DNA from: Betaproteobacteria bacterium
Lineage (GTDB): Bacteria > Pseudomonadota > Gammaproteobacteria > Burkholderiales > SG8-39
Assembly: GCA_005883675.1 (NCBI GenBank)
Contig: VBCM01000106.1
Location: 358 to 52,600, forward strand
Length of the DNA stretch: 52,243 nucleotides
Direction: 5' to 3'
Shown here: one piece after another, positions 1 to 52,243 of the stretch
Layout: the number at the start of each line of letters is the position of its first letter
Numbering within the stretch: the first letter of the stretch is position 1
The notes under the pieces: generated by a model
The model's input: the letters and a program-made list of their open reading frames with translations, nothing else
Told to the model about the DNA's origin: nothing
Database searches by the model: none
Position numbers and translations under genes: made by a program

Positions 1-1
1 G

Positions 2-568
2 GGCATCGAGATCACGGCGATCCACAACCATCTGCTGCGCGCGACTCCGGCGGTGATGTACATGCACTACCAGGGTCATGGCGACGCCGCGAAGCTCGCG
101 GCCGCGGTGCACAGCGCACTCGAAGAGAGCAAGACGCCTCTCGCCGCGCCGCCGAAGGGCGCCGCGCAGCCCTCCATCGACCTCGACACGGCGGCGATCG
201 AGGGCACGCTCGGCGCGAAAGGCACCGCCAACGGCGGCGTCTACCAGTTCAACATCGCGCGCGCCGGCGCTATCAAGGAGCACGGCACGGACATCCCGAT
301 CGGCATGGGATCGGGAATCGTCATCAACTTCCAGCCTACCGGCAACGGAAAAGCGGCCATCACCGGTGACTTTGTGCTTACGGCGCAAGAGGTGAACCCG
401 GTGCTCAAGGCGCTGCGCGACAACGGCATTGAGGTCACCGCCCTGCACAGCCACATGCTCGACGAGCAGCCGCGGCTCTTCTTCATGCACTTCTGGGCGA
501 ACGACGACGCGCAGAAGCTGACCGATGGACTGAAGGCCGCGCTCGACAAGACAAAGCGCGCAAAGTAG
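2..568 (+). CDS. DUF1259 (LpqO/LppY-like) domain protein, 5' end outside window
   Basis: The frame is open from the window edge (GIEITAIHNHLLRATPAVMYMH...). A second copy of the motif (GIEVTALHSHMLDEQPRLFFMHFW) gives the duplicated I-x-[IV]-T-A-[IL]-H-x-H pattern of DUF1259. Family assignment is from memory. Confidence 0.6.
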   Translation, partial: GIEITAIHNHLLRATPAVMYMHYQGHGDAAKLAAAVHSALEESKTPLAAPPKGAAQPSIDLDTAAIEGTLGAKGTANGGVYQFNIARAGAIKEHGTDIPIGMGSGIVINFQPTGNGKAAITGDFVLTAQEVNPVLKALRDNGIEVTALHSHMLDEQPRLFFMHFWANDDAQKLTDGLKAALDKTKRAK

Positions 569-649
569 GCGGTATGCAATAAACGCGAAGCGCGCGAATC
601 AGCCGTCTTCATCGCGCTATAGCGCCTCGCATGGCGCGAGCTTCGCGGC

Positions 650-669
650 GCGCGGCGCTAACGCCGCGC
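650..669. terminator. GC hairpin between convergent genes (8-bp stem GCGCGGCG / CGCCGCGC, loop CTAA)
   Basis: Perfect inverted repeat read directly from the sequence. There is no U-tract, so the terminator role is only inferred. Confidence 0.3.
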
Positions 670-692
670 CAGGCGGCGCGGCACCCGAGCAG

Positions 693-1190
693 CTAGCGGC
701 AGCGCACCGGGATGCCTTGCTGCTGGCGCTTGCCGTCCCGCTCGCAGCTCACCCGCCGTGCGTAGCGCTCCTCGCCGCGCCACAAGACCTGCTCGGTGCC
801 CGCCTGCGGGCAGCGTGTCTCGAGCGTGCAGAAAAGCGCATCGGCTTGATCGAGTACGCACGAGTGGCTCGTGGCGCAGCCCGAGAGTCGGTTGGTGCGG
901 ACGAAGTCGATGCCCCCATCGCCGGCGTGCACGACCTTGATCTGCTCCTCGTCGTCGTAAAGCAGATCCACGAGCTCATAGCCCCTGCCGGAGCGGCGAA
1001 TCTGCTTGGCCGCCGGATAGGTCTGCTGCTGGTCGACCTCGGTCCAACCCCCATAAACATAGCCGGGCGGCGCGTCCGGCGAATAGAGGATGCGGCGTTC
1101 GGTGTCCTGCCAATAGCCTTCGATCGTGTCAGCCGCGTGCGCGGTGGCCAAGCCGCCGCCTAGCCAGAGCAGCAGAGCAAGACGTCGCAT
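693..1190 (-). CDS. secreted hypothetical protein
   Basis: 165-aa ORF with an N-terminal signal peptide (MRRLALLLWLGGGLATAHA/AD). I recognise no family. Confidence 0.6.
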   Translation of the reverse strand: MRRLALLLWLGGGLATAHAADTIEGYWQDTERRILYSPDAPPGYVYGGWTEVDQQQTYPAAKQIRRSGRGYELVDLLYDDEEQIKVVHAGDGGIDFVRTNRLSGCATSHSCVLDQADALFCTLETRCPQAGTEQVLWRGEERYARRVSCERDGKRQQQGIPVRCR

Positions 1191-1240
1191 CGGCGCCTCC
1201 TTACGACGGTTTACAGCGCCGGCGCACGTTTATTCAGTCG

Positions 1241-2500
1241 TCATTTACCGATACGGACCAGCGTGACCTCGTTGGTGAGGCTGTTCGCCAGCACGAAGTT
1301 GCCGTCGCGCGTGACATCGGTGTTGCGCACGATGTTGCCGCCGCCCGGAATGGTCCAGGTCTGGAATTTCTCCGTCTTCGGATCGAAACGCACCACCGTA
1401 TTCGGGCTCGCTTCGGACTCGCTGTACCAGAGCACGCCTTTGATGTCGGAGATGCCATAGGGCGCGGACTTCGGGCCGCTCGGCGATTGCCACTCCTTCA
1501 CTTCGCCGGTCTTGGGATCGAGCCGGCCGAGGAAGCCCCGCGCATAGTCGGTGTACCAGACGATGTCGTCGGACGTGATGGCGATGCGCCGCGGCCGTGC
1601 GCCCGGATCAGGCAGCTTGTATTCCTTGATCTGCAGCGACTTCGGATCGACGCGCGCCACGCTGTTCACGCCGAACTGCACGACGAACACGTTGCCCTTC
1701 GAGTCGACCGCCATGCCATACGGGCGCGACTTCGCCGTCGGCGGCGTGAGGAGCTTGATGTTCCCGGTCTTCGGGTCGAGCCGGCCGATGCGGTTCGCGT
1801 TCTGCACGGTGAACCACAGGATTCCCGCCTTATCGAAGATCAGCGTGTGCGGGTCCTTGGCCTCGGGATCGGGCATCTTGTACTCGGTCACCTCGCCCGT
1901 CTTCGGGTTGAGCTTGCCGATGAGCGCGCCGGTGTTGCCCGTGTACCAGATGTTGCCCGCCCGATCCTCTTTCAGGCCGTGCGGCCCGGAGTGCGCCGTC
2001 TTCAGCGGATACTCCCTGACCGTGCGCATCTTGGGATCGATGCGGCCGAGCACGTTCGCCATCTGGCCCGTGTACCAGAGCGAGCCGTCTCGCGCGGCGA
2101 GCGGATCGTGCGGCCGCGAGCCGGGCGTCGGTGCTTCCCATGCGCGCATGGTCACCTTCATCGGCCCGGGAACCACCACGGCCTCGGGCCGGCCGCGAAC
2201 GGGATAGGTCTTCTCGAGGTAGGCGACGAGCGCCGGCATCTTCTCGGGCGGCACTCCGACGCCGTGGTTAATCATCATGCGCAGCACCGTGCTCCATCCC
2301 TCTTCGGTGTAGCCGGTGCCGACGCGTGCGCCGAGCGGATGGCAGCTATTGCATGTCGCATCGATGAAGGCCTTGGCGTCATTCGGTGCGTCCTGCTGTG
2401 CCGTGGCCGGCACTGTTGCCGCCGCGAGCGCGACGGCGATGATCGCTTTCCTGGGGCTCAATTGCGGCTCCTCTTCCGGTGAAATGAGCGGGGTGCTCAT
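1241..2500 (-). CDS. cytochrome c domain fused to a Vgb/streptogramin-lyase-like beta-propeller
   Basis: Signal peptide followed by the haem motif CNSCH. After that come six or seven repeats of the type G..W[YF]T....IGR[LI]DPKTG. Confidence 0.7.
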   Translation of the reverse strand: MSTPLISPEEEPQLSPRKAIIAVALAAATVPATAQQDAPNDAKAFIDATCNSCHPLGARVGTGYTEEGWSTVLRMMINHGVGVPPEKMPALVAYLEKTYPVRGRPEAVVVPGPMKVTMRAWEAPTPGSRPHDPLAARDGSLWYTGQMANVLGRIDPKMRTVREYPLKTAHSGPHGLKEDRAGNIWYTGNTGALIGKLNPKTGEVTEYKMPDPEAKDPHTLIFDKAGILWFTVQNANRIGRLDPKTGNIKLLTPPTAKSRPYGMAVDSKGNVFVVQFGVNSVARVDPKSLQIKEYKLPDPGARPRRIAITSDDIVWYTDYARGFLGRLDPKTGEVKEWQSPSGPKSAPYGISDIKGVLWYSESEASPNTVVRFDPKTEKFQTWTIPGGGNIVRNTDVTRDGNFVLANSLTNEVTLVRIGK

Positions 2501-2534: not shown

Positions 2535-3476
2535 TTGCAACAACCGACGACGCTGGTCGCATGCTTCGCCTACGGGCAAGGATTTCCGGATCGGCCGATG
2601 CGCATCGTCGTGCCGCTGCCGCCGGGCGGCTCGCCGGATACCATCGCGCGCACCCTGGCGCAGCACCTGCAGGCGACCTGGGGCCAGCCGATCGTGGTGG
2701 AGAACCGCACCGGCGGCAGCCAGAACATCGGCGCCGAGGCGGTTGCGAAGAGCGCGCCCGACGGCTACACCTGGTTGCTTGCGCCGGATAACGTGTTCGT
2801 TATCAACCCGTACATCGCCAAGGCGACGTCGTTCGATCCGCTCACCGACCTCATGCCGGTGACCGAAGTCGCGCGCATCCATTTCCTGCTCGCCGTGCCT
2901 TCATCGCTGCCGGTGAGTTCGGTGCCGGAGCTGATCGCATACGCGAAGGCGCATCCGGGCGAGCTCAACTTCGGCTCGTCGGGCAACGGCAGTCCACAGC
3001 GTCTCATGACGGAACTCTTCCAGCTCACGACGGGTATCAAAATGAATCACGTGCCCTACAAGGGCGCGGCGCCCGCCGTGGCGGACCTGCTCGCGGGCCG
3101 CATCCAGGTCTGGATCGGCGCGCCGAACAGCCTGCTGCCGCATGTCAAGGAAGGCAGGCTTAAGCCGCTCGGCACGACGGCGCCAGAACGCTTGGCCTAT
3201 CTTGGTGACGTGCCGGCGATCGCGGAGACGTTGCCGGGCTTCTCCGTCGATACCTGGCTCGGCATCTTTGTGCCGGCGAAGACGCCCACCGACATCGTGA
3301 GGAAAGTTAACGGTGAGGTGGCGCGTGTACTCGGCAGTTCCGACGTGAAGTCGAAGCTTGAGCCGCAAGGTATCGAGCTAGTAACCAGTTCGCCCACGGA
3401 GTTCGCGAAACTGATTCACGCCGACTACGTGAAGTGGGGCAAGGTGATCAAGGAGGCCAATATCCGTGGCGAGTGA
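2535..3476 (+). CDS. Bug family (TctC-like) tripartite tricarboxylate transporter substrate-binding protein, N-terminus apparently truncated
   Basis: Bug signature RPMRIVVPLPPGGSPD plus family-like sequence throughout. An in-frame stop at 2520-2522 leaves only about 14 residues (TTLVACFAYGQGF) before the mature part. Confidence 0.8.
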   Translation: MQQPTTLVACFAYGQGFPDRPMRIVVPLPPGGSPDTIARTLAQHLQATWGQPIVVENRTGGSQNIGAEAVAKSAPDGYTWLLAPDNVFVINPYIAKATSFDPLTDLMPVTEVARIHFLLAVPSSLPVSSVPELIAYAKAHPGELNFGSSGNGSPQRLMTELFQLTTGIKMNHVPYKGAAPAVADLLAGRIQVWIGAPNSLLPHVKEGRLKPLGTTAPERLAYLGDVPAIAETLPGFSVDTWLGIFVPAKTPTDIVRKVNGEVARVLGSSDVKSKLEPQGIELVTSSPTEFAKLIHADYVKWGKVIKEANIRGE

Positions 3477-5223
3477 AATCGTGCGTGACATTCCCGCGTC
3501 TGTCCCCGAGACGCGCGAGCACTGGGGCAGCGACGCGCTCGCGGCGATGCTGCGCGCAATCGAGCTGCCGTATCTCGCGCTCAATCCCGGCGCGAGCTAC
3601 CGGGGACTGCACGACAGCATCGTCAACTATCTCGGCAACGAGCGGCCGCAGATGCTGCTCTGCCTGCACGAGGAATCGGCGGTTGCTATCGCACACGGAT
3701 ATGCAAAGGCGACCGGCCGCATGATGGGCGTCGTGCTCCATTCCAACGTGGGGCTGATGCACGGCACGATGGCGATCTTCAACGCCTGGTGCGATCGCAT
3801 GCCGATGCTGATCCTCGGCGCGACGGGGCCGTGGGACGCGGCGAAGCGCCGGCCATGGATCGACTGGATCCACACCGCGTCCGACCAGGGCGCGCTGGTG
3901 CGCGACTACACCAAGTGGGACAACCAGCCGGCCTCCGTGCCGGCGGCGTACGAGGCGCTGCTGCGCGCGGCGCAGATGGCGAACACGCCGCCGCGCGGCC
4001 CGACGTACATCAACCTCGACGCCGCGCTCCAGGAATCGAAGATCGCAGCGCTGCCGCCGCTGCCCGATGTCTCGCGCTTCGCGCCTCCCGCCGCGGTCCA
4101 GCCGGAAGCCGCCGCCGTGGCAAAGGCGGCGGAATTACTGTCGGGTGCGAAAAACCCGGCGCTGCTCATCGGCCGCGTAAGCCGCAGCGTGGCAGGCTGG
4201 AAGGCGCGCGTCGCCTTCGCCGAGAAGATCCAGGCGAAGGTCTTCACCGACATCAAGGCGGCGTGCGCCTTTCCTACCGATCACCCGCTGCATGCGGCGC
4301 CGCCGGCAACGTTCCCGGACGGCGCGCTGCTGCGCGAGTGCGACGTGATCGCGTCGCTCGACTGGATCGATACCGCCGGGACGCTCAAGGCGGCGTGGGG
4401 CGATGGGCCGGTGAGCGCAAAGGTGATCCGCATCTCGTCGGACGCGCACATCCATCGAGGCTGGAGCGCCGACTACCAGGGCCTGCCGCCCGCGGATGTG
4501 TACTTGATGTGCGAGCCGGACGTGGCTGTGCCGCTGCTATTGGATGCCGTACGGTCACGCCCTGCGGCGGTGCAGCCGCGCGCCGAGCCGAAGATGGAGG
4601 CGGACACGGCGGTTTCCATCCGGGCGCTCGCGCGAGTGTTCAATGAGCTCACGATGGGCATGGATGTGTGCCTCTCGAAGCTCCCGCTCGGCTGGAACGG
4701 CGCGTATCGCCACTTCCGGCATCCGCTCGACTATCTCGGCGCCGATGGCGGCGGCGGCGTAGGCGCGGGGCCCGGCTGCACCGTAGGTGCGGCGCTCGCG
4801 CTGAACGGCACGGGCCGCATAGTGGTCGGGATCATGGGCGATGGCGATTTCCTCATGGGCAATACGGCGCTCTGGACGGCGACGCATTACAAGCTGCCGT
4901 GCCTCTTCCTCGTGGCGAACAATCGCTCGTTCTATAACGACGAGATGCATCAGGAGCGCGTGGCCAAGGAACGCGGCCGGCCGGTCGAGAACAAGTGGAT
5001 CGGCCAGCGCATCGACGAACCCGACATCGACCTCGCGATGATGGCGCGTTCGCAAGGCGCGATCGGCATCGGCCCGGTAAAGGAGCTCGCGGAGCTGAAG
5101 CCCGCGATCGAGCGCGCCATCCGCGAAGTGAAGGGCGGCGCGGTGTGCGTCGTCGACGTGCGCGTGAAACCGGGCTACGACGCGCCGGTGGCCGGCACCG
5201 GCGCCAGCGCGCGCCGCGGCTGA
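3466..5223 (+). CDS. thiamine pyrophosphate-dependent enzyme (acetolactate synthase / benzoylformate decarboxylase superfamily)
   Basis: 585 aa with the TPP-binding motif GDGDFLMGNTALWTA...NN. GTG start with AAGGAGG 9-10 nt upstream. Confidence 0.85.
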   Translation: MASEIVRDIPASVPETREHWGSDALAAMLRAIELPYLALNPGASYRGLHDSIVNYLGNERPQMLLCLHEESAVAIAHGYAKATGRMMGVVLHSNVGLMHGTMAIFNAWCDRMPMLILGATGPWDAAKRRPWIDWIHTASDQGALVRDYTKWDNQPASVPAAYEALLRAAQMANTPPRGPTYINLDAALQESKIAALPPLPDVSRFAPPAAVQPEAAAVAKAAELLSGAKNPALLIGRVSRSVAGWKARVAFAEKIQAKVFTDIKAACAFPTDHPLHAAPPATFPDGALLRECDVIASLDWIDTAGTLKAAWGDGPVSAKVIRISSDAHIHRGWSADYQGLPPADVYLMCEPDVAVPLLLDAVRSRPAAVQPRAEPKMEADTAVSIRALARVFNELTMGMDVCLSKLPLGWNGAYRHFRHPLDYLGADGGGGVGAGPGCTVGAALALNGTGRIVVGIMGDGDFLMGNTALWTATHYKLPCLFLVANNRSFYNDEMHQERVAKERGRPVENKWIGQRIDEPDIDLAMMARSQGAIGIGPVKELAELKPAIERAIREVKGGAVCVVDVRVKPGYDAPVAGTGASARRG

Positions 5224-5879
5224 TGCCGAAGCTCGCGGCGAGCAAGGCGCTCGTCGAGGACTTGGTCGCCGGGAGCCGCATCCTCGCCGAGCACGAGGTG
5301 CTCGATGCGTATGGGCACCTGAGTGCGCGGAGCGACAAGCGGCCGGAGCACTTCATCATGTCGCGCTCGCGCGCGCCGGCGCTCGTCACCGCCGCCGATC
5401 TCATCGAATGGGGCGCGGACAGCGAGGCCGTAACGGGTGACAAGCGCAAGGGCTTCATCGAGCGCTATATCCACGGCGAGATCTATCGCGCGCGGCCCGA
5501 AGTGATGGCCGTGGTGCATAGCCACTCGCCCTCGGTGATCCCATACGGGGTCACGCAGACGAAGCTGCGGCCGATCTACCACATGGGCTCGTTCCTCTGG
5601 TCCGGCGCGCCGGTGTGGGACATCCGCAAGGTGCGCGAGGAGAACGATCTCCTGGTGCGCGACCGGCCGCTCGGCGCGGCGCTCGCCGGCGCGCTCGGCA
5701 AATGCAACTGCGTGCTGATGCGCGGCCACGGCATGACCGTGGTGGGCGAGATCGAAGGGCCCGTCGCGTTCTTGTCCGATGAGGAGGGTCGCCGGTCCAC
5801 GGCTGCTAACCGCGGAACGCTGGAGCGGCCCTGGGAGCTGTGGAAAACGCGCGCCGCACGAGCCACGCGGCGATCGTGA
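5223..5879 (+). CDS. class II aldolase/adducin-family protein, about 25 aa shorter than the family after the GHG motif
   Basis: Contains HSHSPSVIPYG and LMRGHGMTVVG motifs. TGATG overlap with the upstream stop. See finding on the missing helix. Confidence 0.7.
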   Translation: MPKLAASKALVEDLVAGSRILAEHEVLDAYGHLSARSDKRPEHFIMSRSRAPALVTAADLIEWGADSEAVTGDKRKGFIERYIHGEIYRARPEVMAVVHSHSPSVIPYGVTQTKLRPIYHMGSFLWSGAPVWDIRKVREENDLLVRDRPLGAALAGALGKCNCVLMRGHGMTVVGEIEGPVAFLSDEEGRRSTAANRGTLERPWELWKTRAARATRRS

Positions 5880-7047: not shown

Positions 7048-7086
7048 GATAGAGTCGATCGCGTCATTACCCCGGAGGAGGTTCGC

Positions 7087-8309: not shown

Positions 8310-8310
8310 A

Positions 8311-8796: not shown

Positions 8797-8818
8797 GGCG
8801 TCACGTTAAACTGCGCGC

Positions 8819-9985: not shown

Positions 9986-9990
9986 TGCGT

Positions 9991-10242: not shown

Positions 10243-10318
10243 GCGCCAAAACTTATCGCCGCCGGTCCGCCGCGGCGATGACGTTTTGCTCGGCGCGTGG
10301 AAAAGACATCCGTCCGGC

Positions 10319-10678: not shown

Positions 10679-10698
10679 GCATATCGTATCGCATATGC
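10679..10698. promoter_or_regulatory. inverted repeat GCATAT-N8-ATATGC in an AT-rich divergent promoter region (candidate operator)
   Basis: Read directly from the sequence. It lies in the 51-bp spacer between the HTH gene and the FHA gene. Confidence 0.35.
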
Positions 10699-15408: not shown

Positions 15409-15531
15409 AACCTAATCGGCGAATTCGTACTCCTTCCGGTAGTACTCGTATCAGCTGCGGGTCGGTCTGTCGCGCGGCAGGTGCTCGGATAGGAACTTGA
15501 GCTCGCGAGCATTTCCTCGGCGCGCGAGGCG

Positions 15532-16701
15532 TTAAGGTAAAGGTCCATCAGGCGCCAACGGTATACAACCGCGAGTCCCGGCCAGGGGACTCTGCGTGTC
15601 GCGGCTGAGAAAGCGCCGCAGCAGTTGATGGCTGCGGTGACAGTGACTAGCCGCATAACGGGGGCGATAGCTATGACTCAAGGTCCGGCGGCGATCACTG
15701 GTCACTGCAATAAAGCTGCAACACAGGCATTTTGAAGCGGCCGGCGCGAGAACCCATTGCGCGCGCAGCTCCGGCGACGCGAGCACGCCGGCGGCGAGCT
15801 GGCTGCCGTGCGTTGGCGGATTGGAGTAATTGGTGCGCACGATGCGCTTGAGCTGCGAGAGCACGCGGGCCGCTTCCTCAGGGCTCGCGGTGACGAGGCT
15901 GAACGCGCCTACGCGTTCGCCATATAGCGAGAGCGACTTCGAGAAAGAGGTGGACAGGAACACCGGGCTCATCGCGCCGCCGAAGAGCCGCGCCGCGAGC
16001 GCATCGGCGTCCAGTCCGTCGCCGAAGCCCTGGTAGGCGAGGTCGAGGAACGGAATCAATCCCCGCCGCTGCACGATGGCGAGGATCTCGGACCAGTGCT
16101 CCGGCGAGAGATCGACGCCGGTCGGGTTGTGGCAGCAGGCATGCAGCACCACGATCGCGCCGGCGGGCAGCCGGTCCAGGGCGCTGCGCATGCCGGCGAA
16201 GTCGAGGCCATGCGTCTTCGGCTCGTAGTACGGGTAGCTGCGCACCGTGAACCCGGCGGCTTCGAAGAGCTGGCGATGGTTTTCCCAGCTCGGGTCGCTG
16301 ATCCAGACCTCCGAGAGCGGCGTGATCTGCCGCAGGAAGTCGGCGCCGATCTTGAGCCCGCCCGTGCCGCCGATCGCCTGGACGGTGACGATGCGCTTCT
16401 CCCTGACCGCGGCGAACTCTTTGCCAAAGACGAGCTCCTGCACTGCCCGGTCGTAGGCGGCGAGACCGTCGATCGGCAGGTAATTGCGCGGCGGCGCGGC
16501 TTTCAGGCGCTCGCTTTCCGCGCGCCGCACGCATTCCAGCAGCGGCACCTTGCCCGCGTCGTCGTAGTAGACGCCGACGCCGAGGTTGACCTTCTTCGGA
16601 TTCGGGTCGGCAACGTACGCCTCCGTGATGCCGAGGATCGGATCGCTCGGTGCCATCGGCACCTGGGCAAGGAGCGACGGCGAATGAGGTGCGTTCATCA
16701 A
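15532..16701 (-). pseudogene. tyrB: aromatic-amino-acid/aspartate aminotransferase (TyrB/AspC class), C-terminal ~80 aa replaced by unrelated sequence
   Basis: Homology is clear from [13 protein letters not shown] through the PLP lysine (SFSKSLSLYGERVG) to ELRAQW at about 15754. After that the ORF reads junk (VLAPAASKCLCCSF...). Confidence 0.75.
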
Positions 16702-16706
16702 TTAGA

Positions 16707-18704
16707 ATGATGGGTTTCGCGCTGCACCATTCTACCGTGGCGACTACGTTTCCAAATAGTCCTTTCCGGCTTGCGGAGCTCTACAAGACTGCGGGCGACC
16801 AGCCCGAGGCCGTGGCGAAGCTCGTCGAGGGCATCGAGGACGGGCTCGCGTTCCAGACGCTGCTCGGCGTCACCGGCTCGGGCAAGACCTACACCATGGC
16901 GAACGTGATCGCGCGCCTTGGCCGGCCGGCGCTGGTGCTCGCCCCGAACAAGACGCTGGCAGCGCAGCTCTATTCGGAGTTCCGCGAGTTCTTTCCCGAG
17001 AACGCGGTCGAGTACTTCGTCTCCTACTACGACTATTACCAGCCCGAGGCCTATGTCCCGGCGCGCGACCTCTATATCGAGAAGGACTCCTCGATCAACG
17101 AGCACATCGAGCAGATGCGGCTCTCGGCGACGAAGTCGCTGCTCGAGCGGCGCGACGTGGTGATCGTCGGCACGGTTTCGGCGATCTACGGTATCGGCGA
17201 CCCGTCGGAGTACCACGGCATGATCCTGCACCTGCGCCATGGCGAGAAGCTGTCGCAGCGCGATGTGCTGGCTCGCCTAGTCGCCATGCAATACACGAGG
17301 AAGCACGCCGAGCACGCGATCCGCATCTCACTCTTCGACGATGAGGTGGAGAAGCTGGAAGTCTTCGACCCGCTGACCGGGCGGGTCCTCCATCCCATGG
17401 CGCGGTTCACGGTGTACCCGTCGAGCCATTACGTGACGCCGCGCGACACGACGCTGCGCGCCGTCGAAGCGATCAAGGCGGAACTGCGCGAGCGCATCCA
17501 GTTCTTCCAGGACGCCGGGCGCCTGGTGGAGGCGCAGCGCATCGAGCAGCGCACGCGCTTCGACCTGGAGATGCTCGCGGAGCTCGGCTTCTGCAAGGGC
17601 ATCGAAAACTACTCGCGCCATCTTTCCGGCCGGGAGGCCGGCGAGCCGCCGCCGACGCTCATCGATTACCTGCCGCCCGACGCGCTGATGATCATCGACG
17701 AGAGCCACGTCACCATCCCGCAGCTCGGCGGCATGTACCGCGGCGACCGGTCGCGCAAGGAAAATCTGGTGGAGTACGGTTTCCGCCTGCCCTCGGCGCT
17801 CGACAATCGTCCCTTGCGGTTCGATGAGTTCGAGAAGGTGGTGCGCCAGACAACCTTCGTCTCGGCGACGCCGGCCGACTACGAGCGCGAGAAGTCGGGC
17901 GACGCCATCGTCGAGCAGGTGGTGCGCCCCACCGGACTCGTCGATCCGCAGGTGATCGTGCGGCCTGCGTCCACGCAGGTGGATGATCTGCTCTCAGAGA
18001 TCAGCTTGAGGGTGAAGAAGAACGAGCGGGTCCTCGTTACCACGCTCACCAAGCGCATGGCCGAGGAGCTGACCGACTATCTGTCGGAGCACGGCGTGAA
18101 GGTACGCTATCTGCACTCGGAGGTGGAGACGGTGGAGCGGGTGGAGATCATCCGCGACCTGCGCCTCGGCGAATTCGACGTGCTGGTGGGCATCAACCTG
18201 CTGCGCGAGGGTCTCGATCTGCCGGAAGTGTCGCTGGTGGCGATTCTCGACGCGGACAAGGAGGGGTTCCTGCGCTCCGAGCGCTCGCTCATCCAGACGA
18301 TCGGGCGTGCCGCGCGGCACATCAACGGCACCGCGATCCTCTACGCCGACCGGGTCACCGACTCGATCAAGCGCGCGCTGGACGAGACGGAGCGCCGGCG
18401 CAACAAGCAGCTCGACTACAACGAGCACCATGGCATCACACCGAAGGGCGTGATGAAGCGCATCAAGGATCTTATCGACGGCGTGTACGAGGCGGAGGAC
18501 GCGGAGGCGGTGCGCGTCGCGGCGCGGCAGGAGGCGCGCTACGAGGCGATGAGCGAGAAGCAGCTCGCGCGCGAGATCAAGGCGCTCGAGAAGAAGATGG
18601 TGCAGCACGCCAAGAACCTCGAGTTCGAGGAGGCGGCCCGGGCGCGCGATGAGCTCGCCGAGCTGAAAAAACGCGTCTTCGGCGTGGCGCTCGCGTCCGA
18701 ATGA
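16707..18704 (+). CDS. uvrB: excinuclease ABC subunit B, with an apparent 22-aa in-frame gap in domain 2
   Basis: Contains [22 protein letters not shown], helicase motifs and the C-terminal UVR domain. The start choice (16707) is uncertain. Confidence 0.93.
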
Positions 18705-22311: not shown

Positions 22312-22682
22312 ATGAAGGAAAGGCGCGCGATTCTATTCGTTTGCACGGGGAACATCTGCCGCTCGCCGACGGCGGAAGCGGTGCTGCGGCACCTGGCGGC
22401 GGAGGAGGGTTTGGAGCTTCGCATCGCCTCCGCCGGCATCGGTGACTGGCATGTGGGCTCGGCGCCCGATGAGCGCGCGCAACATCATGCGAAGAGCCGG
22501 GGCTACGATCTCAGCACGCTGCGCGCACGCCAGGTGACGAAGCGCGACTTTGCCGAGTTCGATCTGATTGCGACGTGCCCGATCCGTACTACGGCGGGCC
22601 GGAAGGCTTCGAGCGCGTGCTCGACCTCGTCGAGGCCGCCTGCCGCCAGCTGCTCGCGGAGCTGAAGAAGCCTACTTCCTAG
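22312..22682 (+). pseudogene. low-molecular-weight protein-tyrosine phosphatase, internal deletion plus frameshift
   Basis: The P-loop CTGNICRS and the N-terminal half run to ...FDLIA. The C-terminal [33 protein letters not shown] is present only in the +2 frame from 22572. Confidence 0.8.
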
Positions 22683-26430: not shown

Positions 26431-27014
26431 GGTACCGGCTGCTGGTGTTCGACTGGGACGGCACGATCATCGATTCGGCCGCGACCATCGCAAGCTGCAT
26501 CCGGCTCGCCGCAGCAGAGCTCGCGCTCGAGGTGCCGACGATGGAGCAGGCGCGCCATGTCATTGGCCTCGGGCTGCACGACGCCCTGCGCGCGGCGGTG
26601 CCGCAGCTCGCCGCCGAGCGTACGGCTGAATTCGTCGCGCGCTACCGCGAGCACTTCCGCGCGCGCGAGGACGAGATGGCGGCGACCGGCAAGAGCCGGC
26701 GCGGCCTGGAGCGCGCGCTCGAGGCGACGCGACTGCGGCCGTACTTCCGGGCGTCGCGCTGCGCCGATGAGACGAATCCGAAGCCCGATCCGGCGATGCT
26801 GCGCGAGCTGATGGAAGAGCTCGAGGTCCCGGCGCAGAATGCGCTCATGATCGGCGATACCTCGCACGACCTCGAGATGGCACGGGCCGCGCGCGTGGAT
26901 GCGCTCGCGGTGACCTACGGCGCGCACCCGGAGCAGGGCTTGCGCGCCTGCGGCCCGCGCGGCTGCGTGGCAAGCGTGGCGGAGCTCGGCCAATGGCTGG
27001 CGACGCACGGCTGA
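26427..27014 (+). CDS. HAD-IA family hydrolase (phosphoglycolate phosphatase-like), about 21 aa shorter than the family before motif II
   Basis: Contains FDWDGT, ATGKSR, KPDP and GDTSHD motifs. GTGA overlap with rluC. Confidence 0.8.
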   Translation: MRYRLLVFDWDGTIIDSAATIASCIRLAAAELALEVPTMEQARHVIGLGLHDALRAAVPQLAAERTAEFVARYREHFRAREDEMAATGKSRRGLERALEATRLRPYFRASRCADETNPKPDPAMLRELMEELEVPAQNALMIGDTSHDLEMARAARVDALAVTYGAHPEQGLRACGPRGCVASVAELGQWLATHG

Positions 27015-30592: not shown

Positions 30593-31609
30593 CTGGTCAC
30601 CCTCGCGGTCGACTGCATGGGCGGCGATCACGGCCCCCATGTCACGGTGCCCGCGGCGCTCGAGTTCCAGGCCCGTGTTTCCGATGCCGACATCGTGCTG
30701 GTCGGCGCGCGCGATGCGATCGAGGCCGAGCTCGCGGCGCACGCCGCGGCGGCCGGCGCGCGCCTGCGCGTGCACGCGGCGAGCGAGCTGGTCGGCATGG
30801 ACGAGCCGCCCGCGTTCGCGCTGCGCTACAAGAAGGACTCGTCGATGCGCGTCGCGGTCAATCTGGTGAAAAGCGGCGAGGCGCACGCCTGTGTCAGTGC
30901 CGGTAATACGGGAGCGCTGATGGCCATTTCGCGCTTCGTGCTGAAGACGATTGCGGGCATCGATCGCCCGGCGATCGCGACGGTGCTGCCGAACATGAAG
31001 GCGGGCTTCACCTATGTGCTCGATCTCGGTGCCAACGTCGATTGCACGCCCGAGCAGCTGATGCAGTTCGGCGTGATGGGCGCGATGCTGGTGGCGGCGC
31101 TCGAGCATCGCGAGCGCCCGACGGTGGGCCTGCTCAACATCGGCGTCGAAGACATCAAGGGCAACGAGACGGTAAAGCGCGCGGCGGAGCTCCTGCGCGC
31201 AAGCGGTCTCAACTTTTACGGCAATGTGGAAGGCGACGATATCTACAAGGGCACGACGGACGTGGTGGTGTGCGACGGCTTCGTCGGCAATGCGCTCCTC
31301 AAGGCTTCCGAGGGCGTGGCGCGCATGATCGTCGGCTATCTGCGCGAGGAGTTCAGGCGCAACGCCTGGAACAAATTCAGCGCGCTGCTCGCCACACCCG
31401 TGCTCAAGGCGCTGCGCGTGCGCATGGATCCCGCCAAGTACAACGGCGCGAGCCTGCTCGGCCTGCGCGGCATCGTCATCAAGAGCCACGGCGCGGCCGA
31501 TGCGCGCGCCTTCGGCTACGCGCTCGAACGCGCGCTCGACGAGGTGAGGAACAACGTGCCGCAGCGCATTGCCGAGCGCATGGCGCAGGTCCTGGCGCCG
31601 GCGGCATGA
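30593..31609 (+). CDS. plsX: phosphate acyltransferase PlsX (no canonical start upstream of the conserved N-terminus; first ATG at 30617)
   Basis: The conserved [15 protein letters not shown] begins 5 nt after the rpmF stop. The rest of the protein looks full length. Confidence 0.9.
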
Positions 31610-39801: not shown

Positions 39802-40014
39802 CTGCGCCTCTACGGGCGCGCGGGCTGCCATCTGTGCGAGCAGATGGCGCGCACGCTCGCCGCCTTCGGCGTCCCGTTCGACGAGCTCGACGTCGACGCC
39901 GATCCCGCGCTTGCGCGCCGGTATGGCGAGCGGGTGCCCGTGCTCATGGACGCTTCCGGCGCCGAGCTCTGCCACGGCCGGCTCGAGCCCGCAGTACTCG
40001 CGCAAATCCAATAA
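39802..40014 (+). CDS. glutaredoxin-like (DUF836) small protein, no canonical start before the CxxC motif
   Basis: My translation is LRLYGRAGCHLCEQMARTL...VPVLMDASGAELCHGRLEPAVLAQIQ*. The first ATG (39844) lies after the CHLC motif. Confidence 0.6.
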   Translation: MRLYGRAGCHLCEQMARTLAAFGVPFDELDVDADPALARRYGERVPVLMDASGAELCHGRLEPAVLAQIQ

Positions 40015-42748: not shown

Positions 42749-42765
42749 AAAGGCAGGGAGGGCAA

Positions 42766-43122: not shown

Positions 43123-43791
43123 ATCGGCCCGCGGGCCGCGGACCTCGAAAGCGCGCTCGGCCACCGCTTCGCCCAGCCGGCGCTGCTCGAGCAGGCGCTC
43201 ACGCATCGCAGCCACGGCCCGCTGCACAACGAACGGCTCGAATTCCTCGGCGACGGCGTGCTCGGCTGCGCCATCGCCGAGGAGCTCTACCGCCGCTACG
43301 CCGCGCTGCCCGAGGGAAAGCTCACGCGGCTGCGCGCGAGCCTGGTGCGCGCCGAGGCGCTCGCCGAGCTGGCGCGCGAGCTCGGCCTGCCGGCGCTGCT
43401 GCGCCTGGGCGAAGGCGAGCTGGTGGCGGCCCCGGAGCCGCGCGCCTCGATCCTCGCCGACGCGCTGGAGGCGCTGTTCGGCGCGGTATTCCTCGACGGC
43501 GGCTACGCTGCGGCGCGCGCCGCCGTGCTGCGCGTCTTCGGCGAGCGGCTCGCGCAGCTCGATCCCGAGCGGCCGGCGAAGGACTCCAAGACCGAGCTGC
43601 AGGAGCTGCTGCAGGCCGCCCACCGTCCGCTGCCGGAGTACCGGCTCGTCTCGGTACGCGGTGCGGCGCACCGCCAGTCGTTCGAGGTGCAATGCGTCGT
43701 CGACGAGCTGAGCGCGCGCGGCACCGGCAGCTCGCGCCAGCGCGCTGAGCAGGATGCCGCCCGGGCAATGCTCGACAAGTTGAGCGCTTGA
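43123..43791 (+). CDS. rnc: ribonuclease III (open frame starts directly after the upstream TAG; no ATG/GTG/TTG before the conserved N-terminus)
   Basis: LESALGHRF..ALTHRS...NERLEFLGDGVL, with a C-terminal dsRBD. The first canonical start codon is at 43258, inside the catalytic domain. Confidence 0.9.
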   Translation: MGPRAADLESALGHRFAQPALLEQALTHRSHGPLHNERLEFLGDGVLGCAIAEELYRRYAALPEGKLTRLRASLVRAEALAELARELGLPALLRLGEGELVAAPEPRASILADALEALFGAVFLDGGYAAARAAVLRVFGERLAQLDPERPAKDSKTELQELLQAAHRPLPEYRLVSVRGAAHRQSFEVQCVVDELSARGTGSSRQRAEQDAARAMLDKLSA

Positions 43792-44669: not shown

Positions 44670-44687
44670 TAAGCGCGCAACGGCAGA

Positions 44688-47540: not shown

Positions 47541-47545
47541 AAGAT

Positions 47546-48427
47546 CTACGCGCGCTCCGTCCTCAGAATGAGCACGTTGCCGGCGACGGAGACGCCGATG
47601 CCGAGCCATGTCAGCGCGTGGAAACGAAAGCCTTCGAACGCCGCAGACAGGAGCAGGGCGACGATCGGCACCATGACGCCGATATAGCCCGCCCGCGCGG
47701 CGCCGATGCGCTTGAGTAGCGTCAGATAGCTCGCAAACGCGGCAATCGAGCCGAGCATTGCCAGATAGCCGAGCGAGAGCATATAGGCCGGCGTGGTCTC
47801 GAACGCGAGCGCCTTGCCAGTCGCCAGGCCGATTGCCAGCACGCTCAGGGCGCCGTAGAGCATGCCCCAGGCCATGCCTTGCCACAGCGGCACGCCGGAG
47901 CGCTGGTTGCGGTACGCGACCATGGTGCCAAGCGCCGCGATCAGCACGCTGATCGCGGTGAAGAGCGCGCCCTTTGCGGTCGCCGCGCTGCCCTGTAGCC
48001 GTGCGAGCTCGGGGTAGAAGACGATAACGATGCCGGCGACCCCGAGGATAGACGCCACCGCGACGCGGCGTGTCATCGGCGTTCTGAAGAAGAGCCGCAT
48101 GCCGAGCATGCCTAGGAGCGGGCTCGCCGAATAGCCGACCGCGACCAGCCCCGAGACCACGTGCTGCTCGGCGTAGTAGACGAAGACATAGCCGACACCG
48201 AAGCTGCCAGCGCCGAATAGGGCGAGCCAGACGTGCTCGCGCGGGCTGAAGCGAAGCGGCAGCCGGCGTACAGCGCACCAGGCGAAGAGGAGGACGGAGG
48301 CGAGCAGGAAGCGGTACGAGACGCTCAGTTCGGGCGCCACCGCGCCGAGCTGGAACGTGATCGCGATCCAGGTGGTGCTCCAGATCGCGACGCAGGCCGC
48401 GAAATACTGGAGTTCCGCTACGCGTGG
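47546..48427 (-). CDS. EamA/DMT-family transporter, start codon missing (conserved TM1 abuts the efp stop)
   Basis: Ten-TM-like profile beginning ...PRVAELQYFAACVAIWSTTWIAITFQLG. The 467-aa track ORF is this gene fused to antisense efp. Confidence 0.7.
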   Translation of the reverse strand, partial: PRVAELQYFAACVAIWSTTWIAITFQLGAVAPELSVSYRFLLASVLLFAWCAVRRLPLRFSPREHVWLALFGAGSFGVGYVFVYYAEQHVVSGLVAVGYSASPLLGMLGMRLFFRTPMTRRVAVASILGVAGIVIVFYPELARLQGSAATAKGALFTAISVLIAALGTMVAYRNQRSGVPLWQGMAWGMLYGALSVLAIGLATGKALAFETTPAYMLSLGYLAMLGSIAAFASYLTLLKRIGAARAGYIGVMVPIVALLLSAAFEGFRFHALTWLGIGVSVAGNVLILRTERA

Positions 48428-48429
48428 AG

Positions 48430-48996
48430 CTACGCGCGCTCCATGTAGGTGCCTTCGGCGGTGTCGATCTTGATCTTCTCGCCGGTGGTGACGAACGGCG
48501 GTACTTGCACTGTGATCCCGGTCTCCAGCTTCGCCGGCTTGAAGGAAGTGGTGGCGGTGGAGTGCTTGATGCCCGGCTCGGTGTCGACGACGGTGAGCAC
48601 GACGGAGGGCGGCAGCTCCACGCCGATCGGGCGGCCGTTGTAAAAATTGATCTGCACATCCGTGTTGGGCAGGAGATAGCCGGCCTGGCCTTCGAGGAAC
48701 TCGGCGGGCAGCGAGAGCTGCTCGTAGTTCTCCTTGTCCATGAAGACGTACATGTCGCCGTCCTGGTAGAGATACTGCATGTCGCGCGGGTCGACGAAGG
48801 CGCGCTCGATCTTGTCCTCGGTGCGGAAGCGCTGGTTGGTCTTGGTGCCGGCCTCGATGTCCTTCATCTCGACCTGCATGAACGCGCCGCCGCGCCCGCC
48901 GACGTGCACGTGATAGCTCTTCAGCACGCGCCAGACGCGCTTGTCCCACTCGAGGAGATTGCCGGGACGGATCTCGACTGCTTCTACCTTGGCCAT
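48430..48996 (-). CDS. efp: elongation factor P family protein with an Arg-tipped extended loop (EF-P/EfpL-like)
   Basis: 188 aa with YVFMDKENYEQL, GIKHSTATTSFKPAKLETG and GEKIKIDTAEGTYMERA. The loop reads HVGGRGGAF. Confidence 0.88.
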   Translation of the reverse strand: MAKVEAVEIRPGNLLEWDKRVWRVLKSYHVHVGGRGGAFMQVEMKDIEAGTKTNQRFRTEDKIERAFVDPRDMQYLYQDGDMYVFMDKENYEQLSLPAEFLEGQAGYLLPNTDVQINFYNGRPIGVELPPSVVLTVVDTEPGIKHSTATTSFKPAKLETGITVQVPPFVTTGEKIKIDTAEGTYMERA

Positions 48997-49055
48997 GGTT
49001 GCTTTTGCCGCTCGGAAAAAGGGCGAAATTCTACACGTTTTATAATGGATTCATC

Positions 49056-50834
49056 GTGTTCGAAGCAAAGTCCTTCGTCGCCGGGCTGCCGAACCTGCCC
49101 GGCGTCTACCGCATGCTGGGCAAAGACGGCGAGGCGCTTTACGTCGGCAAGGCGCGCGATCTCAAGAAGCGCGTGGCATCCTACTTCACGAAGCAGGCGC
49201 AGAGCCCGCGCATCGAGATGATGCTCTCGCAGGTCGCCTTGATGGAGGTCACCGCGACGCGCTCCGAAGGCGAGGCGCTGCTCTTGGAAAACAATCTGAT
49301 CAAGAGCCTGGCGCCGCGCTACAACATCCTCTTTCGCGACGACAAGTCCTACCCGTACCTGATGATCACCGGACACGAGTACCCGCGCCTCGGATTTCAT
49401 CGCGGTGCGCGAGACCGCAAGCATCGCTACTTCGGTCCGTTTCCGCACGCTTACGCGGTGCGCGAAAGCATCCAGCTACTGCAACGCGTGTTCCGGCTGC
49501 GGACCTGCGAGGACACGGTGTTCGAGAACCGCTCGCGACCCTGCCTGCTGCACCAGATCCACCGCTGCACCGCGCCGTGCGTGGGAAAGATCGCGCCGCA
49601 GGTCTATGCCGAGGATGTGGCGAACGCGGTGCTATTCCTGGAAGGGCGGGAGGACGACGTCATCAGGGGACTCACCGAGCGCATGCAGCGCGCGGCCGAC
49701 GAGCGCCATTACGAGCAGGCGGCGATCTACCGCGACCAGGTCCGCGCGCTCGCGCGCGTGCAGGCGCGCCAGTACGTCGAGTCGCATCGCGGCGTCGATG
49801 CCGACGTGGTGGCCTGCGTCATCGAGGGCGGCATCGCCTGCGTCAACCTGGTGATGATCAGGGCAGGGCGCCATGTGGGCGATCGCAGCTTCTTCCCCGC
49901 CAATGCGGAGGGCGCGGAGCCGGCCGAGGTGGTCGCCGCGTTCCTCGAGCAGCACTACCTCGAGCAACCGCTGCCGGGGCTCGTGATCGCGAGCGAGCCC
50001 GTCGAGCTGGAAAACGCGCACGTCGTCACACCGGCCCACGGTGAGCGCAAGGTGTGGCTCGACATGGCGCGCAAGAACGCCGAGCTCGCGATCGCGCAGC
50101 GCGTGCGCGACCGCACGACGCAGGAGACGCGCCTGCAGGCGCTGCGCGAAGCGCTGGGATTGCCCGAAGGCGCCGGGCGCATTGAATGCTTCGACATCAG
50201 CCATACGATGGGCGAGGCGACGGTCGCCTCGTGCGTGGTGTACGACCGTCAGCAGATGCAGAAGTCCGAATACCGGCGCTTCAACATCCGCGGCGTCACG
50301 CCGGGCGACGACTATGGCGCGATGCGCCAGGTCCTCGAGCGCCGCTACGAGCGCGTCACCGCGGAAAGCGGCAAGGTGCCGGATCTCGTGCTGATCGACG
50401 GCGGCAAAGGGCAGGTGAGCGTGGCGCGCAGCGTGCTCGCCGATCTCGGCCTGCACCAGCTTTGCGTGGTGGGCGTGGCCAAGGGACCCGAACGTAAGCC
50501 GGGAATGGAGGAGCTGATCATCGAGTCGGAATCGCGCAGCCTGCAGCTCGCGCCATCGCATCCCGGCTTGCACCTCATCCAGGCGATCCGCGACGAGGCG
50601 CATCGCTTCGCCGTGGTGGGACACCGCGCGCGCCGCGGCAAGAGCCGCACCACGTCGATGCTCAACGAGATCCCGGGCATCGGCGCGAAGCGCCGCCAGG
50701 CGCTGATCGAGCACTTCGGCGGACTGCGCGGTGTGCAGGCCGCGGCGATCGACGACATCGCCAAGGTCGAAGGCATTAGCCGGCCGCTCGCCGAGCGCAT
50801 CTACCGCCACCTGCACGATAGCGCCGCCGCATGA
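49056..50834 (+). CDS. uvrC: excinuclease ABC subunit C
   Basis: GIY-YIG domain (PGVYRMLGKDGEALYVGKA...), UVR domain, ECFDISHTMGE, and a C-terminal HhH (IPGIGAKRRQALIEHFG). The GTG start was chosen by N-terminal conservation. Confidence 0.92.
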   Translation: MFEAKSFVAGLPNLPGVYRMLGKDGEALYVGKARDLKKRVASYFTKQAQSPRIEMMLSQVALMEVTATRSEGEALLLENNLIKSLAPRYNILFRDDKSYPYLMITGHEYPRLGFHRGARDRKHRYFGPFPHAYAVRESIQLLQRVFRLRTCEDTVFENRSRPCLLHQIHRCTAPCVGKIAPQVYAEDVANAVLFLEGREDDVIRGLTERMQRAADERHYEQAAIYRDQVRALARVQARQYVESHRGVDADVVACVIEGGIACVNLVMIRAGRHVGDRSFFPANAEGAEPAEVVAAFLEQHYLEQPLPGLVIASEPVELENAHVVTPAHGERKVWLDMARKNAELAIAQRVRDRTTQETRLQALREALGLPEGAGRIECFDISHTMGEATVASCVVYDRQQMQKSEYRRFNIRGVTPGDDYGAMRQVLERRYERVTAESGKVPDLVLIDGGKGQVSVARSVLADLGLHQLCVVGVAKGPERKPGMEELIIESESRSLQLAPSHPGLHLIQAIRDEAHRFAVVGHRARRGKSRTTSMLNEIPGIGAKRRQALIEHFGGLRGVQAAAIDDIAKVEGISRPLAERIYRHLHDSAAA

Positions 50835-51436
50835 TCGTGCTCAACATCCCCAACCTGATCACGCTGTCGCGCATCGTGCTGATCCCGCTCCTCATCGGCA
50901 TCTACTATCTGCCGGCCGAATGGCTCACAGACGGCGAGAAAGACGTGATCGCGACGGGCATCTTCATCCTGGCGGGCATCACCGACTGGCTCGACGGCTA
51001 CCTGGCGCGGCGCCTGAACCAGATGTCGGCGTTCGGCGCCTTCCTCGACCCGGTCGCCGACAAACTGATGATCGCCGCGGCGCTGATCGTGCTGGTCTGG
51101 CTTCAGCGCGTGGATGCGATCATCGCCGTGGTCATCATCGGACGCGAGATCGCCGTTTCAGCGATGCGCGAATGGATGGCGAAGATCGGCCAGTCGAAAA
51201 GCGTCGCGGTAAACTTCCTCGGCAAGATAAAAACGATTTCGCAGATGATCGCCGTGCCGCTGCTGCTCTACAACGAGCGGATCGGCGTGCTCAGTCCCCA
51301 GCGCGTCGGCACCTGGCTCATCTACCTTGCCGCGATACTGACCCTGGTTTCGATGTTCTACTATCTGAAACTCGCCGCGGCGCCGCGTGCAGAAGGAGAT
51401 CGCCGCCGGCTTGACCGCAGGGGGATCGGTCCGTAG
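50831..51436 (+). CDS. pgsA: CDP-diacylglycerol--glycerol-3-phosphate 3-phosphatidyltransferase
   Basis: DWLDGYLAR...GAFLDPVADK motif. ATGA overlap with uvrC. Confidence 0.92.
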   Translation: MIVLNIPNLITLSRIVLIPLLIGIYYLPAEWLTDGEKDVIATGIFILAGITDWLDGYLARRLNQMSAFGAFLDPVADKLMIAAALIVLVWLQRVDAIIAVVIIGREIAVSAMREWMAKIGQSKSVAVNFLGKIKTISQMIAVPLLLYNERIGVLSPQRVGTWLIYLAAILTLVSMFYYLKLAAAPRAEGDRRRLDRRGIGP

Positions 51437-51453
51437 AATTTCCGCCTGCTCTC

Positions 51454-51529
51454 GCGGGAGTAGCTCAGTTGGTAGAGCGTAACCTTGCCAAGGTTAAGGT
51501 CGCGAGTTCGAGACTCGTCTCCCGCTCCA
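51454..51529 (+). tRNA. tRNA-Gly (GCC)
   Basis: Folded by hand: acceptor stem GCGGGAG/CTCCCGC, anticodon loop TTGCCAA, T-loop TTCGAGA, and an encoded CCA. Confidence 0.93.
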
Positions 51530-51586
51530 GAATTCCGAGGAACAGCCCGTTTCGATATCCTTCGCTGTTCCTGGCCTCAGGCATAC

Positions 51587-51657
51587 GGCGGGGTGGCAGA
51601 GTGGTCATGCAGCGGCCTGCAAAGCCGTGGACGCCGGTTCGATTCCGACCCCCGCCT
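51587..51657 (+). tRNA. tRNA-Cys (GCA)
   Basis: Acceptor stem GGCGGGG/CCCCGCC, anticodon loop CTGCAAA, T-loop TTCGATT and discriminator U. CCA is not encoded, and there is one C-A mismatch in the T stem. Confidence 0.85.
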
Positions 51658-51868
51658 CGGCTTTTCAACTTGGTTTTCTTTCGGGCGGAGCATGGAAGTC
51701 CACGAAAGTCCAAGATATCACCCTTCCACGGCGGTAACACCGGTTCGCATCCCCTTTGGGGACGCAAGTTTAATCAACAGGTTAGCAACGAACAACGACT
51801 CCGTTGCATCCGCCGTGTCGCGGCCGGCGCCGCACGTTCTGAAGTGCAATTCTGTCACCCGGAACGGC

Positions 51869-52243
51869 TCAGAAGGCGTTCTGCTTTTTGAGCAAGACAA
51901 AGATCGTCTTCACCACTATCTGCAAATCGAGCTGCAGAGACCAATTTCTCAGGTAATCGAGATCATGCTCGATGCGCGACCTTGTGCCGGATCATGTAGC
52001 CCTTGATCAACCGGCGGTACATCTCGTTGTGCGCCACCGCGTGGGGGCGCGGGCCGACGACGCTCATGCGGCCCTGCAGCACGTTGAAAAACTGCGGCAG
52101 CTCGTCGAGCGAGTACTGCCGCAGAAGTGCGCCGAGACGGGTTACGCGCCGGTCGTTGCGCGTGGCCTGCTTGATTACATTTCCGTCGTCGAGCACGGTC
52201 ATCGTGCGGAACTTGTAGATGACTATCTCCTTGCCGTCGAGTC
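51869..52243 (-). pseudogene. polyprenyl-phosphate sugar phosphotransferase (Bac_transf / WbaP-like), internal deletion plus frameshift; 5' end outside window
   Basis: ...[18 protein letters not shown]...[32 protein letters not shown]...RHKV runs into a stop. The conserved tail (R)[34 protein letters not shown] is in the next frame. Confidence 0.8.

Follow-up and report, generated by a model that had tools for sequence, protein, structure and literature searches.

Seven private sequence losses in a 52-kb soil Burkholderiales contig, very probably left by contigs joined without gap placeholders

Contig VBCM01000106.1 of the Betaproteobacteria bacterium assembly GCA_005883675.1 contains a stretch of 52,243 nucleotides (nt; positions 358 to 52,600, forward strand), referred to here as the window, in which an earlier sequence-only reading had flagged eleven genes or gene starts as lacking sequence. 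Comparison with other contigs of the same population, and at one probable locus with homologues, indicated that seven of these losses are real and sharp to the base, whereas the remaining four (at plsX, a glutaredoxin-like gene, rnc and a DMT-family transporter gene) align to those contigs without a gap. The seven losses are private to this record, the population itself is intact, and junctions coincide with the contig ends of other assemblies. In all likelihood, then, what the window represents is not one continuous molecule; at least eight contigs would have been put together in it, as a scaffold or consensus, and the gaps between them closed up.

Seven junctions at which the window lacks sequence

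Two sets of references were used. The nearest species-level genomes are metagenome-assembled genomes from soil, with a protein identity of 82-86%, and seven other-species references (L001-L006 and L081) were aligned to the window. In addition, a protein search with the window's UvrB led to P0001, and exact-protein look-ups then led to ~40 contigs of the window's own population, for most of which the nucleotide identity to the window is 99-100%. These stem from Joint Genome Institute (JGI) assemblies, third-party MEGAHIT assemblies and N-containing scaffolds (CRIT18-1_SAMN089028xx), and their combined coverage is 47,604 of the window's 52,243 nt, at an identity of at least 98.9%; the window is three times as long as any other contig of the population. 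A literature search on the sample identifiers gave no hit. Metagenome contigs scanned with LepA yielded only relatives at 90% identity or less.

In a first test, alignment to the other species revealed breaks after ~5748 (72 nt), ~17295 (66 nt), ~22570 (~88 nt) and ~26680 (60 nt), and homology to tyrB began abruptly at 15753. Against the same-population contigs the window exhibited exactly six private discontinuities, and a seventh, at 51977, is deduced from homologues. The seven junctions are as follows.

2547..2548, + strand: junction 1; TctC/Bug receptor gene without its start codon, signal-peptide N-terminus and upstream region, at least 32 nt
5751..5752, + strand: junction 2; class II aldolase/adducin-family gene minus 72 nt (24 codons, in frame)
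15752..15753, - strand: junction 3; tyrB (aromatic aminotransferase) truncated after residue ~317, its 3' end absent
17301..17302, + strand: junction 4; uvrB minus 66 nt (22 amino acids, in frame) in the UvrA-interaction domain
22568..22569, + strand: junction 5; low-molecular-weight protein tyrosine phosphatase (PTP) gene minus 88 nt, frame shifted
26681..26682, + strand: junction 6; HAD-family phosphatase gene minus 60 nt (20 amino acids, in frame)
51977..51978, - strand: junction 7; Bac_transf sugar transferase gene, probably minus ~74 nt, frame shifted

For six of these junctions the comparison was with near-identical contigs from the population itself, for the one at 51977 with homologues only. 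The internal in-frame gaps that had been proposed for the aldolase, uvrB and HAD genes were confirmed, since 72, 66 and 60 nt, respectively, are absent from the window relative to intact homologues. For uvrB, the 66 nt are carried by L161, L162, L163, L164, L165, L271 and L274; the window's protein is identical to P0001 at 653 of 655 aligned residues, apart from a 22-residue gap at the junction, and it matches only positions 50-91 of the 91-position Pfam model UvrB_inter, compared to 1-91 for the intact allele of the same population. The 60 nt missing from the HAD gene are present in L257/L263, L258, L259 and L261, where the product comprises 215 amino acids as opposed to 195 in the window. 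For the aldolase gene, MAFFT alignment to L001 placed the absent 72 nt after 5748, and the missing bases were found in scaffold L166, to the right of that scaffold's own 61-N gap.

L166 also spans junction 1, where it reads ...CAACAACCGA, 10 N, AAGAGTGAAACGCTGGATCGTCGCCGCACTGG and CGACGCTGG..., whereas in the window ...CAACAACCGA is followed directly by CGACGCTGG. The 32 nt that L166 carries here include the GTG start and the signal peptide of TctC, and in the window the Pfam model TctC (1-273 of 274) is matched from residue 37 of a spurious open reading frame (ORF) that begins with TTG. As L166 is the sole scaffold covering 2547 and 5751, and has an N gap of its own beside each break, the evidence that it provides at these two junctions is partial.

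The two frameshifting gaps proposed earlier were likewise recovered, one against the population and one against more distant sequences. All ten of the same-population contigs covering the phosphatase junction (L162/L273, L163/L275, L271, L274, L276-L280) carry the missing 88 nt, and the Pfam model LMWPc is matched over 1-84 of 144 positions in the window and over 1-144 in the intact allele. In the sugar transferase, Pfam Bac_transf is matched over 45-128 of 179 positions in one frame, and the C-terminal part lies in another; the homologues P0136, P0130 and P0151 hold ~26 additional residues (KPGITG...R) between the two parts. A same-population contig was sought for this junction and none was found, and the estimate of ~74 nt comes from homologues of 85-91% identity only; the loss at 51977|51978 is thus probable on comparison of sequences.

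A replaced 3' end had been suspected in tyrB, and this too was borne out: the window's gene matches NCBIfam PRK09257 over 2-308 of 397 positions only and Pfam Aminotran_1_2 over 2-272 of 361 (2-361 in L161), and L161 carries a further 285 nt of tyrB together with a tRNA-Asn. What the window has in their place is the following segment.

15410..15752, no strand: replacement segment; 343 nt in place of the spacer, tRNA-Asn(GTT) and last ~89 tyrB codons of L161

The L161 equivalent is 435 nt long (L161 3851-4285), with the tRNA-Asn at 3900-3975. The 343 nt are non-coding in the tyrB frame (GC content at third codon positions, GC3, 0.56, compared to 0.88 in the homologous part of tyrB), and a search of 15410-15752 against Rfam returned no RNA family, the only matches being two tRNAs at 51.4-51.7 kb. 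The segment has a single match, at 100% identity: the last 343 nt of scaffold L166. Downstream of the GST gene the population therefore presents two haplotypes: haplotype A, with the spacer, tRNA-Asn(GTT) and intact tyrB 3' end (L161, L165, L271), and haplotype B, with an unrelated, non-coding-looking 343 nt of 60% GC (seen in the window and at the end of L166). A population polymorphism also plays a part in the join at 15752|15753, and an element may have inserted beside the tRNA, with the segment as its edge.

Strain variation was also observed near two other junctions. In uvrB, 6-8 synonymous-looking single-nucleotide polymorphisms (SNPs) lie within 30 nt (17270-17300) directly to the left of junction 4, and this cluster splits two haplotypes, L163, L274, L275 and L280 versus the window, L161 and L162; within 17190-17630 lie the starts or ends of many contigs from other assemblies. 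Around 26.7 kb, the identity of L258 (1378-3416, aligned to window 26682-28725) to the window drops from 100% left of this region to 92.5% right of it, and that of L257 (1-1433, aligned to window 25254-26681) rises from 97.0% to 99.95%, which suggests recombination blocks or a chimeric strain consensus in those contigs.

Origin of the losses

None of the seven losses is shared by the ~40 same-population contigs or by the seven other-species references, and wherever a gap-free contig of the population spans a junction, the missing sequence is present. The flanks of the junctions are 99.8-100% identical to the intact contigs; between junctions 3 and 4, for example, the window agrees with L161 at 1549 of 1549 nt, and to the left of junction 6 it agrees with L258 at 1317 of 1317 nt. 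Away from the junctions, the 47.6 kb compared contain no small indels; what differs in length is limited to a handful of paired 1-nt gaps in the alignments, a variable repeat length in the RNase E gene and two shared polymorphisms. No internal stop codons were found, and at every junction GC3 amounts to 0.8-0.9 to the left as well as to the right.

These observations bear directly on deletional decay or genome reduction across the lineage, one of the two explanations offered by the sequence-only reading. The many truncated, frameshifted and internally deleted conserved genes, at high density, do recall pseudogene-rich reductive genomes such as those of Mycobacterium leprae, Burkholderia mallei and recent endosymbionts, and this raw impression is all that speaks for decay. 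In reductive genomes, lesions are shared within the lineage and accompanied by many 1-10-nt indels and stop codons, and by expansion of insertion sequences or AT drift. In contrast, the lesions of the window are private to one record and occur in no other member of the population or related species, all measure at least 42 nt, and outside the lesion each gene agrees fully with intact alleles; GC content is 63-70%, coding density and GC3 are normal, and neither stop codons nor small frameshifts accompany the losses. Moreover, the four cases that the lineage does share are not lesions, three of them having complete domain models from a CTG or ATC. The intact contigs of the same population refute decay of the lineage, to which we attach next to no probability, and seven deletions of at least 42 nt without any 1-10-nt indel are not credible as a natural lineage history. 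The density proposed earlier, about one event per 5 kb, also requires correction: losses do recur, but the real count is seven in 52 kb, with six in the first 26.7 kb.

The other explanation offered, an artefact of collapsed gaps, dropped positions or misassembly, held up: in addition to being private, the losses are contradicted by intact sequence in up to 10 independent assemblies and coincide with contig ends. Assemblies break at the exact base of three junctions, namely 2547 (left edge of an N gap in L166), 15752 (end of L166) and 26681 (end of the MEGAHIT contig L260). Near-exact breaks occur at two, with the right-hand contig of L166 starting ~6 nt from 5751 and L164 starting at ~15751, within 2 nt of 15752. 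At 17301 and 22568, no contig end or N gap of another assembly coincides with the junction. By a rough estimate (~60 contig ends, 7 junctions, 47.6 kb), chance alone would yield ~0.01 exact matches between junctions and contig ends.

The size and spacing of the losses are also those of unfilled gaps in sister scaffolds. Measurable losses in the window amount to 60, 66, 72, ~74 and 88 nt, and the N gaps of sister scaffolds hide 60 nt (L247), ~73 nt (L166) and 82 nt (L278), while one is in fact a 55-nt overlap. Such gaps occur about once per 7-17 kb, a density similar to that of the window's losses. In this respect the window resembles paired-end metagenome scaffolds with unfilled N gaps (L166, L247, L261, L278), in which 60-82 nt are hidden at comparable spacing, at the same bases as the window's junctions or neighbouring ones, between flanks otherwise identical to gap-free assemblies. 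It differs from them in having no placeholder Ns, such that each gap looks like a clean deletion and shifts frames. The MEGAHIT contigs of the population, which were never scaffolded, contain no such losses in ~68 kb. The JGI metagenome contigs surveyed (~1 Mb) contain no N runs, which would also fit scaffolds split at their gaps.

The signature of a biological deletion process was absent. At the borders of the uvrB, PTP, HAD and aldolase losses there is no microhomology, and at junction 1 there are at most 3 nt (CGA); the junctions share no motif, and no polymorphism was seen inside the missing segments. Tandem duplications, the complementary artefact expected from negative gaps, were looked for and not found. 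Although conserved cores were removed (half of the UvrA-interaction domain of UvrB, the C-terminal quarter of TyrB and the C-terminal half of the PTP), the remainder of each damaged gene is identical to functional alleles.

Taken together, the identical background, the coincidence with assembly breaks, the match in size and density, the lack of a biological signature and the functional implausibility argue for a technical origin. The source would be a low-coverage soil Burkholderiales population, the contigs of which, approximately 1-2547, 2548-5751, 5752-15752, 15753-17301, 17302-22568, 22569-26681, 26682-51977 and 51978-end, would have been butted end to end without gap placeholders. Which technical step took the sequence out is an inference: the N runs marking unfilled scaffold gaps were most likely dropped between assembly and this window. 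Each join would then mimic a clean deletion of the unsequenced stretch, of 60-88 nt at five junctions and more at two, and the outcome for the gene, whether in frame, frameshifted or deprived of its start or end, would be set only by the position of the gap.

Several observations weigh against closed-up scaffold gaps. The window itself contains 0 N; a 30-mer taken next to the uvrB junction had 0 hits among the genome contigs searched, and exact look-ups of the window's own proteins mostly came back empty. All seven losses fall in dispensable genes, and there is no loss in the 25 kb between 26.7 and 51.9 kb, which hold plsX, fabHDGF, acpP, lepA/B, rnc, era, acpS, efp and pgsA; the probability of this placement is (27/52)^7, or ~0.01, a post hoc figure that assumes uniform placement. 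The same distribution would be expected from selection on real deletions. The exact-base ends of L260 and L166 could reflect a real deletion allele co-occurring with the intact allele and splitting the assembly graph. Three of the five measurable losses are in frame (p ~0.2, not significant). Lastly, the N-free JGI contig L271 (Ga0209805_1001556) has a private 56-nt loss in uvrB, from which it follows that such losses can arise without the stripping of Ns. That loss, at L271 8763-8765 (window 17440-17495), has a 3-nt CGC microhomology and breaks the ORF, and the MEGAHIT contig L276 begins precisely at the right-hand edge of this loss. Where the losses lie can equally well have a technical reason, namely that effective coverage is better over conserved core genes; this coverage, together with coverage gaps shared by assemblies of the same reads, explains both the placement and L271 without recourse to biology.

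Real deletions private to one clone that dominates the sample, several of them 60-90 nt long and left, for instance, as end-joining scars in dispensable genes, would account for the placement in non-essential genes and for the contig ends just described. The 0-3 nt of microhomology would suit them as well, being compatible with end joining of the Ku/LigD type. However, the short alleles at uvrB, PTP and HAD occur in no other contig, and seven such deletions would have had to arise on a 99.8-100% identical background with zero small indels, a mutational spectrum for which we know of no precedent. One deletion per 7.5 kb corresponds to ~600 per genome if the process were genome-wide, the L166 gap at junction 1 shares its left edge with the window's loss but not its right, and the sizes equal the scaffold gaps of sister assemblies. 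We thus regard real deletions in one clone as very unlikely, and equally so their specific form, a burst of homology-independent 60-90-nt deletions, for example after desiccation-induced breaks, in a clone co-occurring with intact strains.

Somewhat less improbable, yet still a minor contender, is another technical artefact, in which short junctions present in a few reads or in the graph were followed by the assembler where true coverage was thin. Candidate causes include library chimeras, fused read pairs that lost their inner part, mis-polishing and a reference-guided consensus that dropped uncovered positions. The sizes lie close together (56-88 nt), which points to some typical length, for instance an inner mate distance; the loss in L271, with L276 starting at its right edge, is of a similar kind; and L260 ends where the short and intact alleles diverge, as a graph branch would give. 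Against this stand the MEGAHIT contigs of the population, which are free of such losses, and the N gaps of the sister scaffolds, which already match the size class and density with no added assumption. The dropping of zero-coverage positions would be expected to leave many gaps of less than 40 nt, and none was seen. A false merging of overlapping contig ends or read pairs was rejected, there being no 6-10-nt approximate homology at any junction.

Further candidate mechanisms were tried and discarded. Slippage and microhomology-mediated deletion found no support, as the borders compared have no direct repeats beyond 3 nt. A polymerase jump across a hairpin was rejected on DNA folding z-scores of -1.9 to +1.0 relative to shuffled sequences. 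Complex bubbles in the graph, with losses extending over clusters of strain SNPs, were abandoned as an explanation as well, given that the segments and their borders are invariant save for the one cluster to the left of the uvrB junction, and that no strain switch occurs at the junctions.

Assuming closed-up gaps, the losses hold no biological novelty, and the main value of recognizing them is quality control. Where 60-90 nt are silently absent at each join, a record yields pseudogenes, frameshifts and "novel short variants" that are all spurious, such as a UvrB with only half of its UvrA-binding domain or a TyrB with a foreign tail, and such errors pass into protein databases and into models trained on the record. 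L271 indicates that further public assemblies of this population suffer from the same type of defect. Any other finding that touches 2547, 5751, 15410-15753, 17301, 22568, 26681 or 51977 should accordingly be judged with the probable joins in mind.

Genes without a canonical start codon

The sequence-only reading had also listed five genes whose conserved N-terminus begins at or near the end of the neighbouring gene without a canonical start. For one of them, the TctC/Bug receptor gene, a start was indeed lost, at 2547; the other four have the same layout in the contigs of the population. They are as follows.

30593..31609, + strand: plsX; complete from CTG, 7 nt past the rpmF stop; not a loss
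39802..40014, + strand: glutaredoxin-like gene (DUF836); complete from CTG, 8 nt past the upstream stop; not a loss
43123..43791, + strand: rnc (RNase III); full length from ATC, directly after the TAG of the DUF4845 gene; not a loss
47546..48430, - strand: EamA/DMT transporter gene; directly after efp, between nagZ and efp; not a window-specific loss

Over these loci the window is collinear with same-population contigs (26,682-40,948 and 41,989-51,093), and the alignments are free of gaps over 12,219 nt in L262, 9,789 nt in L263 and 5,648 nt in L251, with only two 1-nt gaps, near 50,46x, over 8,207 nt in L249. Relative to the distant L081, differences of 12-38 nt were seen near the starts of plsX, the glutaredoxin-like gene and rnc, and no comparable gap was seen at plsX relative to L001. 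Since all same-population contigs have the same architecture, the four arrangements are, judged by comparison of the contigs, traits of the lineage and not losses. The question of whether relatives display the same shortened architecture, raised along with the original list, is thereby answered in two ways: contigs of the population do so for these four genes, and they do not for the seven real losses.

In particular, the notion that the housekeeping genes plsX and rnc are damaged did not survive, as their domain models are complete and their DNA is the same in the population. Translated from the CTG at 30593, PlsX matches FA_synthesis over 1-324 of 324 positions from residue 2, and its DNA is the same, with 0 gaps, in L257/L263, L261, L262 and L264-L268. 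A Shine-Dalgarno-like AAAGGCGAG lies upstream of the CTG, and the layout CCG CTG after the rpmF stop recurs in L001, a different species, while L081 has ATG. Rnc matches TIGR02191 over 2-219 of 219 positions with complete Pfam domains, and GGAGG is located 10 nt upstream of the ATC; the DNA is identical in L248 and L249, and the relatives L168-L170 have TTG at the equivalent codon. The glutaredoxin-like protein, read from the CTG at 39802, matches Glrx-like over 2-73 of 77 positions from residue 1. Its DNA is identical in L261 and L262; L169 and L081 also have no canonical start here, and L083 and L086 have ATG.

Bacteria are known to initiate at codons other than AUG, GUG and UUG, including CUG and AUC/AUU (e.g., the AUU of infC), and translation table 11 lists alternative starts. 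In line with this, the family models of plsX, the glutaredoxin-like gene and rnc begin at CTG, CTG and ATC just past the upstream stop, in a layout that is conserved in the population and, for the first two, in related species too. In contrast to the known cases, the codons here are candidates from sequence alone. These three genes most likely initiate at the non-canonical CTG, CTG and ATC, and they appear to do so across the clade; gene callers truncate them in all public contigs to 330, 56 and 177 amino acids by choosing a downstream ATG or GTG.

The DMT gene differs in having no obvious candidate codon. Its first transmembrane segment begins right after the efp stop with no canonical start before it, and EamA is matched from residue 10. 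L248-L255 are collinear and gap-free across 48430, and in the relatives L169 and L170 the gene is absent from the equivalent place, where there are only ~22 nt. It may be a true N-terminal truncation or a fusion remnant common to the species.

Gene content and natural variation of the window

The window, with a GC content of 63-70% and 0 N, holds the usual chromosomal gene set of Burkholderiales, which can be grouped as follows.

Group 1: thiamine pyrophosphate (TPP) enzyme, class II aldolase, MFS transporter, beta-lactamase-fold protein, tyrB, uvrB
Group 2: TctC receptors, LysR regulators, low-molecular-weight phosphatase, RNase E, rluC, HAD phosphatase
Group 3: rpmF-plsX-fabHDG-acpP-fabF; rpoE-rseAB-degP; lepA-lepB-rnc-era-recO-pdxJ-acpS
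Group 4: nagZ, efp, uvrC, pgsA, tRNA-Gly, tRNA-Cys, sugar transferase

The C-terminal region of RNase E (23044-23270) consists of imperfect 15-33-nt repeats, is 98 nt shorter in L162/L273 and contains an N gap in L278; these length differences could stem from repeat-length variation or from assembly collapse. The two polymorphisms shared among contigs are intergenic and look genuine: at 21834-21840, L163/L275, L278 and L280 carry an additional 43 nt, and at 47541, L248, L253 and L254 carry an additional 32 nt.

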